This document shows, piece by piece, positions 11,278 through 14,033 of a DNA stretch of 24,000 nt (position 1 is its first letter; each line of letters opens with the position of its first letter). Position numbers and translations under genes: made by a program. Source of the stretch: Duganella sp. BJB476 (GTDB lineage: Bacteria > Pseudomonadota > Gammaproteobacteria > Burkholderiales > Burkholderiaceae_D); NCBI RefSeq assembly GCF_003416895.1, contig NZ_QVIO01000011.1:824-24823 (forward strand). Reading direction: 5' to 3'. A model generated the notes under the pieces. It had not been told where the DNA came from. It was given only the letters and a program-made list of their open reading frames with translations, and did no database searches.

Positions 11278-12240
11278 ATGCATTGCTTGACCACTACCCG
11301 CCGCATCGCCCTGCTGTGCCTGGCCGCCGGCCTGGCCGCCGCGCCGGCCGCGCCGGCCGGCGAGCCGATCACGCCGGTGCCGCTGAGCTTGCACCAGGAC
11401 CCGGCCAAGGCCGCGCTGGGCCGGCGCCTGTTCAACGACGTCCGGCTGTCGGGCAACAGCAGCGTCTCGTGCGCCAGCTGCCACAACGTCGCGCGCGGCG
11501 GCGGCGACCAGCGCGCCAAATCGCTCGGCTTCCTGGGCAAGCCGGGCGCCGTCAACACGCCCACCGTGCTCAACGCCGCGCTCAACTTCAAGCAATTCTG
11601 GGACGGCCGCGCCGACACGCTGGAAGCCCAGCTCGACATGGTGATCCGCAATCCGATCGAGATGGGGTCGTCGTGGGAGAGCGTGCTGGCCAAGCTGGCG
11701 GGCGACGCCGCCTACCGCGACGGCTTCGCGGAGGCTTACCGCGACGGCCTGACCATCGCCAACCTGCGCCATGCCATCGTCAGCTACGAACGCACGCTGA
11801 TCACTCCCAACGCCCGCTTCGACCAGTACCTGCGCGGCGACCGCAACGCCATCACGGCGGCGGAAAAGACCGGCTACGCCAAGTTCAAGCAGTTCGGCTG
11901 CGTGGCCTGCCACCAGGGCGTCAACGTCGGCGGCAATATGTTCCAGAAATTCGGCGTCATGGGCGACTACTTCGCCCAGCGCGGCGGCATCAACGAAGCC
12001 GACCGCGGCCGTTACGCCGTCACCCACAATCCCGACGACCTGCACGTGTTCAAGGTGCCCAGCCTGCGCAACGTGACGCGCAGCGCGCCGTATTTCCACG
12101 ACGGCTCGGCCGCCACGCTGGAGCAGGCGATCGACGTCATGTTCAAGTTCCAGCTGGGACGCAGCGGCAGCAAGCAGGACAAGGCCGACATCATCCAGTT
12201 CCTCAATACGCTCAACAGCACACCGGCGGGGCAGCCATGA
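11278..12240 (+). CDS. Exported di-haem cytochrome c peroxidase (bacterial CCP/MauG family)
   Basis: SD AGGAG at 11267-11271. Sec-type signal peptide. There are two CxxCH motifs: CASCH (11470-11484) and CVACH (11899-11913). Family landmarks: FWDGRA, NPIEMG, FKVPSLRNV, PYFHDGS. Confidence 0.88.
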   Translation: MHCLTTTRRIALLCLAAGLAAAPAAPAGEPITPVPLSLHQDPAKAALGRRLFNDVRLSGNSSVSCASCHNVARGGGDQRAKSLGFLGKPGAVNTPTVLNAALNFKQFWDGRADTLEAQLDMVIRNPIEMGSSWESVLAKLAGDAAYRDGFAEAYRDGLTIANLRHAIVSYERTLITPNARFDQYLRGDRNAITAAEKTGYAKFKQFGCVACHQGVNVGGNMFQKFGVMGDYFAQRGGINEADRGRYAVTHNPDDLHVFKVPSLRNVTRSAPYFHDGSAATLEQAIDVMFKFQLGRSGSKQDKADIIQFLNTLNSTPAGQP

Positions 12241-14033
12241 ACGCGCACCGCCGGTGGTGGCGACAACGACTGCGGCTGTACCGGCTGCCGCTGGCCTGCC
12301 TGCTGCTGGCCGTCCTGCTGGGCGCGATCTACGCGCGCAGCCTCAGCTACGACAGCAACGACTACTTCGCCAACGTCGCGCTGCTGCGGCAAGTCGGCCA
12401 GCTTGACGCGCAATGGGAACTCGACGCGATGAAGTCGCGCATCGGCCTGAACCCGAGCTACGACGCGCTGGCCCATCCGCTGGAGGCCATGCACGAGCTG
12501 CCCTTGCAGATCAAGGCGTCGTCGCCGCAATTGGCCGCCGCGCTGGACGCCTACCAGGAGACCCTGAGCGCGAAGGCGGCGCTGATGGAGGCATTCAAGT
12601 CGCACAACGCGGTGCTGCACAATTCGCTGGACTTCCTGCCCGTCGCCGCCGACGACATCGGCGCTCCAGTCAACCTGCAGCGCGGCCACCGGCTGGAGGC
12701 GATGGGTCATGCGGAGGCGGCCGCCCACCGCCTGCTGCTGGCCTTGCTGATCTACAGCGACGGTCCTTCCGAGAGCGGCGTCGCCGAGGTCGAACGGGAG
12801 CTGGCCGCCCTGGAGGCCTCCCGCGCCGGCCTGTCCGGCGAGCTGGCCGAGCGCATCGACACCATGAGCGCGCACGCGCGCACCGTGCTGGTCGAACAGG
12901 CCGCGGTCGACCGGCTGCTGACCGGCATTGCGGCGGCCCCCACCGACGAAAGCATCGACGCCATCAGCGCCCTGCTGGGCCAGCAACAACAACTGGCGAT
13001 GCAGCGCCTGCATGCCTACCGCTACGGGCTGATACTGCTGGCCGCGCTGCTGGTCGGGCTGCTGGCCTACACCGCGCTGCGGCTGCTGCGCAGCCACGCC
13101 ACGGTCCAGCGCGTCAACGCCGAACTGAAGACCGCCAATGACCACCTCGAAGGCCGGGTGCAGGAACGCACCGCCGAACTGCTGCAAGCGAACCAGCGCT
13201 TGCAGCAGGAGATGGCCGAGCGCAAGGCCCTGCAAAGCCGGCTGGTGCAGTCGGAGAAGCTGGCCTCGATCGGCCAGCTGGCGGCCGGCGTGGCGCACGA
13301 GATCAACAACCCGCTGGCCTTCCTGGCCTCCAACTTCGGCACGCTGGAGGACTACCTGGACAAGCTGTTCGAGCTGCTGGGCGCCTACGAGCAAGCCGAG
13401 CCCGGCGCCGCCTCGCACGAGGCGGTGGCACGCTCCCGCAGCCGGGTCGACCTGGCCTACCTGAAGCAAGACATTCCGGCGCTGGTGGCCGAATCGCGCG
13501 GCGGCATGGAGCGGGTCGGCAAGATCGTGCAGGACCTGAAACAGTTTTCGCGCGTGGAAGCCACCCAGGACTGGGAGTGGGCCGACCTGCGCACCGGCCT
13601 GCAATCGACGCTCAACCTGATCGGCGGCGACCTGGAAGCGGTGGCCGACATCCAGACCGAATTCGGCCCGATGCTGGAAATCGAATGCATGCCGTCGCAG
13701 CTGAACCAGGTGTTCCTGCACCTGCTGCAAAACGCCGCCCAGGCCATCGGCCCCGAGCGCGGCCGCATCACCGTGCGCTGCGGCAGCGCAGGCTCCGAGG
13801 TCTGGCTGGAAGTCAGCGACACCGGCGGCGGCATCGCCGCCGAAGCGCTGCCGCGCATCTTCGATCCCTTCTACACCACCCGGCCGATCGGCAAGGGCAC
13901 CGGGCTGGGGCTGTCGCTCTCCTACGGCATCGTGCAAAACCACTACGGCCGCATCGACGTGCAGAGCACGCCGGGCCGGGGCAGCACCTTCCGCGTGACG
14001 CTGCCGGTCAGCCACCGCATGGCCCAGGCCTAG
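12237..14033 (+). CDS. Membrane histidine kinase: TM, ~230-aa all-helical periplasmic domain (DAHL- or four-helix-bundle-like by eye), TM, coiled coil, HisKA, HATPase
   Basis: The real start is the internal ATG at 12237, which overlaps the CCP stop as ATGA; 598 aa. TM1 is LPLACLLLAVLLGAIYA and TM2 is YGLILLAALLVGLLAYTAL. H-box: AAGVAHEINNPLAF (His at 13296-13298). The kinase core is closely similar to that of the 10339 gene. Confidence 0.85.
   Translation: MNAHRRWWRQRLRLYRLPLACLLLAVLLGAIYARSLSYDSNDYFANVALLRQVGQLDAQWELDAMKSRIGLNPSYDALAHPLEAMHELPLQIKASSPQLAAALDAYQETLSAKAALMEAFKSHNAVLHNSLDFLPVAADDIGAPVNLQRGHRLEAMGHAEAAAHRLLLALLIYSDGPSESGVAEVERELAALEASRAGLSGELAERIDTMSAHARTVLVEQAAVDRLLTGIAAAPTDESIDAISALLGQQQQLAMQRLHAYRYGLILLAALLVGLLAYTALRLLRSHATVQRVNAELKTANDHLEGRVQERTAELLQANQRLQQEMAERKALQSRLVQSEKLASIGQLAAGVAHEINNPLAFLASNFGTLEDYLDKLFELLGAYEQAEPGAASHEAVARSRSRVDLAYLKQDIPALVAESRGGMERVGKIVQDLKQFSRVEATQDWEWADLRTGLQSTLNLIGGDLEAVADIQTEFGPMLEIECMPSQLNQVFLHLLQNAAQAIGPERGRITVRCGSAGSEVWLEVSDTGGGIAAEALPRIFDPFYTTRPIGKGTGLGLSLSYGIVQNHYGRIDVQSTPGRGSTFRVTLPVSHRMAQA

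Follow-up and report, generated by a model that had tools for sequence, protein, structure and literature searches.

A secreted di-haem peroxidase-like protein and the DAHL domain as a candidate two-protein periplasmic sensor

In a 24,000-nucleotide (nt) stretch of the genome of Duganella sp. BJB476 (hereafter the window), the gene for a secreted protein resembling di-haem cytochrome c peroxidases (CCPs) overlaps the gene for a membrane histidine kinase whose periplasmic sensor is a DAHL domain. An earlier reading of the letters alone (the original prediction) proposed that the two proteins act as a haem co-sensor pair, an interpretation that the present analysis partly supports. Our favoured reading, in which we place moderate confidence, is that the CCP-like protein and the DAHL domain act as a two-protein unit that senses peroxide or redox state in the periplasm. 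The comparative evidence for a functional partnership at the input of the kinase is strong, and this appears to be the best reading because the overlapping pairing is conserved, because it is independent of the output, and because the sensor has a predicted TorS-like fold. The elements of the pair are:

11267..11271, + strand: Shine-Dalgarno-like AGGAG, 6 nt 5′ of the CCP start (from sequence)
11278..12240, + strand: di-haem CCP-like gene, 320 amino acids (aa), the proposed haem co-sensor (Pfam CCP_MauG, PF03150)
11470..11484, + strand: first haem motif, C65-A-S-C68-H69, by homology that of the peroxidatic, low-potential haem
11899..11913, + strand: second haem motif, C208-V-A-C211-H212, by homology that of the electron-transfer haem, with M288 as axial Met
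12237..12240, + strand: ATGA stop/start overlap of the CCP TGA (12238-12240) and the kinase ATG (12237-12239) (from sequence)
12237..14033, + strand: DAHL sensor histidine kinase, 598 aa (Pfam DAHL, HisKA and HATPase_c)
12282..12335, + strand: transmembrane (TM) helix 1, about aa 16-33 (Kyte-Doolittle hydrophobic run at aa 12-38)
12351..13022, + strand: periplasmic DAHL domain, aa 39-262, the proposed CCP-facing transducer (PF19443)
13023..13091, + strand: TM helix 2, about aa 263-285 (hydrophobic run at aa 258-285)
13092..13265, + strand: helical linker from TM helix 2 to the phospho-acceptor domain, aa 286-343 (a coiled coil predicted from sequence only)
13272..13355, + strand: HisKA/DHp, aa 346-373 (Pfam, 27.4 bits against a cut-off of 26.9)
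13692..14012, + strand: HATPase_c, aa 486-592 (Pfam, E 1.2e-25)

Conserved pairing of CCP genes with the DAHL sensor domain

DAHL homologues were gathered by an exhaustive search of representatives; a word-indexed search, swamped by low-complexity words, had given 6 matches. The exhaustive search yielded about 600 DAHL clusters at 50% identity, whose outputs are kinases, hybrid kinases, GGDEF, GGDEF-EAL and methyl-accepting chemotaxis proteins (MCPs). A 32-sequence DAHL alignment (A1) proved too diverse for locus finding, and the narrower alignments A2 and A3 were used. Scanning species-representative genomes with the DAHL alignment produced a genomic set of 80 loci, which belong to Beta- and Gammaproteobacteria (Oxalobacteraceae included) and span Duganella, Massilia, Rugamonas, Undibacterium, Polaromonas, Ramlibacter, Rhodocyclaceae, Lysobacterales, Marinobacterium and many fluorescens-group Pseudomonas. 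The metagenomic set comprises 58 loci with enough upstream sequence, drawn from a distant DAHL subfamily (KSxNAxLKNS) that is ~30% identical to the query.

A CCP gene lies immediately 5′ of the DAHL gene in 79 of the 80 genomic loci, where the CCP homologues are 55-75% identical, and in 54 of the 58 metagenomic loci, where the genes again overlap; the two surveys together place a CCP upstream of DAHL in about 96% of 138 loci. The original prediction had named a lack of conserved adjacency as evidence against itself, and the surveys find the opposite. The stop/start overlap that it reported in the window (ATGA at 12237-12240) is present and recurs as a 4-bp ATGA or GTGA junction at nearly all related loci of both sets. 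Look-ups that began from the CCP (64-74% identity) led to a DAHL kinase overlapping by 4 bp in three cases out of three. Pairwise identities of CCP and DAHL rise and fall together (r = 0.96 over 131 pairs, with 0 of 500 Mantel permutations as high), a correlation that owes part of its strength to shared phylogeny. Over the paired proteins, mean identity is 57% for CCP and 35% for DAHL, making CCP the more conserved of the two. At the level of sequence comparison, this pattern shows that CCP and DAHL are inherited as a unit.

The pairing also survives changes in what follows the sensor. Besides the common ~600-aa DAHL kinases, the architectures found by Pfam to be coupled to a CCP include DAHL-MCPsignal (L087, L088), DAHL-PAS-PAS-GGDEF-EAL (L092), DAHL-GAF-PAS-GGDEF-EAL (L165) and DAHL-PAS-HisKA-HATPase-REC-REC-Hpt (L163). 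Because the pairing persists across kinase, hybrid kinase, GGDEF-EAL and MCP outputs, the CCP is, judged by these architectures, tied to the DAHL sensor domain and not to the output. Chemoreceptors and enzymes of cyclic di-GMP (c-di-GMP) turnover do not control transcription, so co-regulation accounts for the pairing less well than a shared input. A sensor that merely regulates its own peroxidase operon was considered as the cause of the pairing and ruled out by the MCP and GGDEF-EAL outputs.

None of the 150 best DAHL representatives is a natural CCP-DAHL fusion. The complete genome of Polaromonas aquatica 36b22 (L023:4991-5929) carries an in-frame TAG just past the CCP signal peptide (LLDEPI*PIPL), while the rest of the CCP gene is undamaged, as is the DAHL hybrid kinase; the stop points to a pseudogene or to an error in sequencing.

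The peroxidase-like protein and the DAHL kinase

The CCP gene starts only 18 nt past the stop of the upstream kinase gene, and its product matches CCP_MauG (PF03150) with an E-value of 4.5e-56 (190.1 bits against a cut-off of 25.6). The N-terminal region has a single hydrophobic segment (aa 10-28), and residue 1 of the mature Nitrosomonas europaea enzyme (1iqc) aligns with residue 27. These two observations fit a cleaved Sec signal of about aa 1-26, as the original prediction had it, and the protein is predicted to be exported to the periplasm.

The closest relatives in the PDB are 9qdt (3.6e-76), 1iqc from N. europaea (2.7e-71) and 3o5c from S. oneidensis (2e-69), with structures of MauG (E ~1e-26) and MbnH (E 4e-38) far weaker matches. 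The NCBIfam scores for MbnH (TIGR04039, 175.1 bits against a cut-off of 362.85) and MauG (TIGR03791, 162.8 against 443.85) fall below threshold, and these scores together with the Met ligand rule out membership in either family.

In an alignment of 134 CCPs from the paired loci (module CCPs), both CXXCH motifs are invariant, and W108 (100%), Q118 (100%), E128 (97%) and M288 (99%) are conserved, as are E128-M129 and H274 (97-100%). W108, E128, Q118 and M288 of the window protein align with their counterparts in 1iqc and 3o5c; we take W108 to be the inter-haem Trp, E128 and Q118 to be catalytic, and M288 to be the axial ligand of the electron-transfer haem. Since the haem motifs and catalytic residues are retained across the module CCPs, the protein has probably not degenerated and is likely to be a working peroxidase whose haem is open.

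In resting CCPs of the class that requires reductive activation, a distal His ligates the peroxidatic haem. This His is missing from the window CCP, which has F85 where 1iqc and 3o5c have His; among the module CCPs the commonest residue at the position is Phe (40%), and His is not the conserved one. The Trp beside it is replaced by Gly (G87) in 94% of them. G87 forms part of a clade signature that also includes an invariant W133, an extra Trp close to the catalytic Glu, an invariant Q213 and a 5-aa insert at 232-236. With respect to bacterial CCP structures, these clade-specific changes presumably lie in loops that rearrange on reductive activation. The signature is shared by 9qdt_A, named 'Probable cytochrome c peroxidase', which is 417 aa long, carries ~123 additional residues at its N terminus and lacks the distal His, with Gly at position 87 and Trp at position 133.

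For the kinase, the original description of the sequence holds. The hydrophobic segments at aa 12-38 and 258-285 flank a periplasmic loop (aa 34-262) that is rich in Ala and Leu and contains 0 Cys, and Pfam finds no HAMP domain in the protein at E <= 0.01. The nine His to which the original prediction drew attention are present but do not form a family feature: H213 is 98% conserved and H123 48%, with the remaining seven at <=10% in the DAHL family. The idea of a His-rich loop supplying metal or haem ligands was dismissed, as H213 alone of the nine is conserved. A profile search of the periplasmic segment, proposed at the outset as a check, identified the DAHL domain at aa 39-262 (PF19443, E 9.4e-48; score 163.3 bits, cut-off 38), in a match that runs over positions 2-221 of the 221-position profile. 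The phospho-acceptor His354 (nt 13296-13298) lies in the H-box VAHEINNP.

The helical character ascribed to the segment is borne out by an AlphaFold2 model of the DAHL domain with eight helices and no strands (predicted local distance difference test, pLDDT, 84.3; predicted TM-score, pTM, 0.71). The top Foldseek match of this model is the HBM domain of McpS (2yfa and 2yfb; E 3e-4, TM-score up to 0.60). Foldseek also matches it to the TorS sensor structures 3i9y, 3o1h (the TorS-TorT complex) and 3i9w (TM-scores 0.32-0.52), in keeping with the original choice of TorS as a comparator; the modelled resemblance between the DAHL and TorS folds is only moderate. A profile search of the PDB gave no credible match to a solved DAHL structure. 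Across 147 CCP-linked DAHL domains, the conserved residues are Y75, D76, K113, H213, P235, Y261 and the motif F120-K-S-x-N-A-x-L-x-N-S-L-x-x-x-P135 (which includes N124 and N129-S130). These positions are candidates for a partner-facing or hinge surface.

A proposed signalling route and its genomic setting

If the two proteins act together, the secreted di-haem CCP would be the primary receptor, with its open, His-less peroxidatic haem reacting with H2O2; the redox state of the second haem, set by periplasmic electron donors, may provide an additional input. The resulting change in CCP would be read by the double helical bundle of the DAHL domain in the membrane kinase, in a complex that is probably 2:2 and whose stoichiometry could be fixed by translational coupling. 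The DAHL domain would relay the change through TM helix 2 and the helical linker to His354, from which the phosphoryl group would most likely pass to the REC-GGDEF-EAL-REC protein and to other receiver proteins of the surrounding cluster. A periplasmic oxidant or redox state would thereby be converted into a change in c-di-GMP levels. In this scheme we infer the docking of CCP on DAHL, the identity of the signal and of the response regulator, and the direction of control. The other genes of the cluster are:

2831-3793, + strand: CAP-domain protein (Pfam)
3790-4356, + strand: Hpt (Pfam)
4918-7101, + strand: dCache-PAS kinase (Pfam)
7098-7712, + strand: REC-GerE regulator (Pfam)
7780-8184, + strand: single REC (Pfam)
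8181..10337, + strand: REC-GGDEF-EAL-REC, the likely phosphorylation target and c-di-GMP output (Pfam)
10339..11259, + strand: sensor-less kinase core, 306 aa (Pfam)
14116..15105, + strand: PAS-GGDEF diguanylate cyclase, 83 nt 3′ of the DAHL kinase (Pfam)

The output of the system is most likely c-di-GMP turnover. REC-GGDEF-EAL genes lie on the same strand in the flanks of 61 of the 80 genomic loci and within 300 bp in 50, and the Pseudomonas operons run in the order REC-PAS-GGDEF-EAL, REC-GGDEF-EAL, CCP, DAHL histidine kinase (DAHL-HK), REC-HK. Other loci have REC-PAS-GGDEF-EAL or REC-HD-GYP genes near the module. In the window, the sensor-less kinase starts 2 nt past the REC-GGDEF-EAL-REC stop, and the transmitters of this kinase and of the DAHL kinase share 50% identity. 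In Pseudomonas, the counterpart of the sensor-less kinase is one REC-HisKA-HATPase protein encoded 3′ of the DAHL kinase. The gene arrangement hints that genes have split or fused and that the sensor-less kinase belongs to a network of several kinases.

Between 2831 and about 15105 the genes seem to be organised in a single tightly coupled operon or in a few such operons. No terminator-like site was found on the + strand in 2500-15400; a promoter scan returned 0 promoters, and terminators occurred at the background rate. Downstream, 16069-23992 holds an unrelated carbohydrate-use block that encodes a GH2 beta-galactosidase, a DUF386 protein, a transporter of the amino-acid permease family, a YgjK-like glycoside hydrolase and a TonB-dependent receptor.

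Relation to known systems, alternative explanations and significance

The closest true relative of the pair is probably found in Campylobacter jejuni, where it would be the same cassette with a chemoreceptor output. There, the CCP gene docA (Cj0020c) lies directly 5′ of docB (Cj0019c), which encodes Tlp10 (PMC3156733), the receptor bearing the founding DAHL domain (PMC9796306). The two genes overlap and are translationally coupled, and docA and docB mutants fail to colonise chicks (PMC13462783, PMC3156733, PMC4518328), yet neither C. jejuni CCP protects strain 81-176 against H2O2 (PMC4518328). DocA/Tlp10 thus resembles the Duganella pair in having a CCP gene that overlaps the gene of a DAHL receptor, an arrangement also seen in the CCP-coupled DAHL-MCPs of L087 and L088, and differs from it in having chemotaxis, not a kinase, as its output. 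An interaction between DocA and Tlp10 is suggested in one speculative sentence of a 2026 paper. Beyond this remark on C. jejuni we found no report of a family-wide CCP-DAHL association, in a search that left most subscription journals outside its scope.

Other sensors share individual features with the pair. TorT/TorS likewise combines a membrane kinase, an all-helical two-tier periplasmic bundle and a separately encoded periplasmic partner, but TorT belongs to the periplasmic binding proteins and recognises a small molecule, whereas the partner encoded in the window is a di-haem peroxidase. Pfam finds no relationship of the window kinase to TorS, and the NCBIfam TorS models match only its ATPase region (92 bits against 676). 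The McpS HBM domain, despite being the best structural match of the DAHL model, binds organic acids directly and uses no partner protein, and Pfam HBM has no match in the DAHL kinase. In LuxP/LuxQ, too, the periplasmic sensor domain receives its signal by way of a partner protein. In the HbpS-SenS-SenR system of Streptomyces reticuli, a membrane kinase is likewise under the control of a secreted accessory protein that binds haem, in response to peroxide or redox stress; HbpS differs in its unrelated fold (PF03928) and one non-covalent haem, and SenS lacks a DAHL domain. H-NOX/HnoK and NosP/NahK have a separate haem protein that gates a kinase feeding REC-EAL or REC-HD-GYP enzymes, but those sensors are cytoplasmic, carry b-type haem and respond to nitric oxide (NO), while the haem protein of the window is periplasmic and has two c-type haems in a peroxidase architecture. 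Canonical di-haem CCPs (1iqc, 3o5c and 1eb7 from P. aeruginosa) resemble the window CCP at E-values of 1e-59 to 1e-71 and share its two CXXCH motifs, inter-haem Trp, catalytic Glu and Met ligand; the module CCPs depart from them in lacking the distal His ligand, in their own signature and in their obligate pairing with a DAHL gene. The CCP-DAHL system belongs to none of the TorT/TorS, LuxP/LuxQ, H-NOX/HnoK, NosP/NahK or HbpS/SenS families. Haem-based sensing that depends on an accessory protein is known; the combination of this partner with this sensor would be new.

Several observations weigh against a dedicated two-protein sensor. The CCP looks catalytically competent, and an ordinary enzymatic role is possible for it. 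Shared phylogeny contributes to the identity correlation, as noted above, and ATGA overlaps are common within the window cluster, occurring also at 3790-3793, 7098-7101 and 8181-8184. A clade of DAHL-GGDEF proteins (L005, L095, L098, L148; ~480-525 aa), with its own synteny of GST, PolyA_pol-like and DAHL-GGDEF genes, has no adjacent CCP; either DAHL is not universally CCP-dependent or these genomes encode a CCP elsewhere. L035 and L157 are single CCP-less cases. Most CCP-less DAHLs keep the invariant residues; among those missing from L157 (DAHL-PAS-GGDEF) and L005 are Y75 and H213. L035:4042-7797, from Pseudomonas fluorescens PS862, has the usual operon of REC-GGDEF-EAL and DAHL-HK with the CCP cleanly absent (the upstream stop is at 5907 and the DAHL start at 5908) and an intact DAHL domain (E 9.6e-53). 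Finally, Elgamoudi and colleagues are said to have reported, in 2021, direct binding of small ligands by the DAHL domain of Tlp10.

Two further loci depart from the intact pair. L144 is the sole hybrid DAHL kinase with a deleted CCP; the last ~25 CCP codons remain (...REVELIVEFLKTLTGQWNGRQL*), and the ATGA junction is retained at 1864-1867. The next gene upstream (L144:748-1563) encodes a 271-aa signal-peptide protein that matches the HbpS-like Pfam family PF03928 (39.9 bits against 25), which, as one case, could be a non-orthologous replacement of the CCP or a coincidence. L004 (GCA_000381565.1) is 90-95% identical in nucleotide sequence to window 4809-13433 and contains the same cluster with many internal deletions. 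One of these removes aa 167-231 of the CCP, including the second CXXCH, and another removes the part of the kinase that comprises the distal DAHL region, TM helix 2 and HisKA; either the whole system is decaying together or the deletions are artefacts of assembly.

We regard it as unlikely that the two proteins are merely co-expressed and function independently, with DAHL binding small-molecule ligands directly and the CCP serving as an ordinary periplasmic peroxidase or H2O2-respiring enzyme that might, for example, protect the envelope under conditions sensed by the DAHL protein. The retention of all catalytic residues in the CCP, the conserved motifs kept by some DAHLs without an adjacent CCP, and the frequency of ATGA overlaps in the window cluster would all accord with such an arrangement. 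Because other overlaps join genes of the same cluster (CAP/Hpt, dCache-HK/REC-GerE and REC/REC-GGDEF-EAL-REC), the CCP/kinase overlap of the window is by itself weak evidence; its conservation over about 130 loci exceeds chance. Independent co-expression would have to outlast those loci, DAHL identities of 15-45% and changing neighbours, and the pairing survives output swaps to MCP and GGDEF-EAL proteins, which are not transcription controllers. DocA, moreover, confers no peroxide resistance, yet a docA mutant has the colonisation defect of a Tlp10 mutant.

Two other arrangements would keep a dedicated partnership and change its chemistry, and we consider both very unlikely. The CCP and DAHL could be an enzyme and its substrate, a MauG- or MbnH-like CCP using H2O2 to oxidise or cross-link DAHL (at the candidate residues Y75, H213 and Y261), either as a one-off maturation or as the signalling event itself. 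The CCP_MauG superfamily does include MauG and MbnH, which modify partners encoded nearby; the best NCBIfam matches of the CCP, although sub-threshold, are to these two; and an invariant extra W133 lies near the catalytic Glu, with an invariant Tyr and His in DAHL. However, the CCP is far nearer to true peroxidases (1iqc, 2.7e-71) than to MauG (~1e-26) or MbnH (4e-38), scores well under both family cut-offs, and keeps the Met axial ligand typical of peroxidases. The axial ligand of MauG is a Tyr. A specific form of this idea, to which we give little credence, has the CCP oxidising DAHL from its haems through W133 to Y75, H213 or Y261, so that a possibly reversible redox modification triggers transmembrane signalling; DAHL domains in general would then be substrates or clients of CCPs and not binders of small molecules. 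Alternatively, the same two-protein sensor could respond to another signal, its open five-coordinate haem detecting NO or else O2, CO or sulfide, which would parallel, in the periplasm, the H-NOX and NosP circuits. The module CCP clade lacks the distal His, and the wiring to REC-GGDEF-EAL and REC-HD-GYP proteins resembles the c-di-GMP networks of H-NOX/HnoK and NosP/NahK, but the 97-100% conservation of E128, Q118, W108 and the Met-ligated second haem is hard to explain if peroxide turnover is irrelevant.

Should the CCP and DAHL indeed form a sensor of periplasmic peroxide or redox state, they would represent a widespread input module in which a periplasmic di-haem peroxidase serves as a receptor subunit for kinases, c-di-GMP enzymes and chemoreceptors, and bacteria would possess dedicated sensing of periplasmic peroxide or redox state. 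A role would also be found for many genes, abundant in the environment, whose sole annotation is "cytochrome c peroxidase"; the CCP candidates detected number more than 8000. The idea is directly testable in tractable Pseudomonas strains, for which L035 offers a natural CCP-less control. The reported ligand detection by the DAHL domain of Tlp10 would need re-examination, and the requirement for C. jejuni DocA in gut colonisation, without any contribution to peroxide resistance, would be explained.

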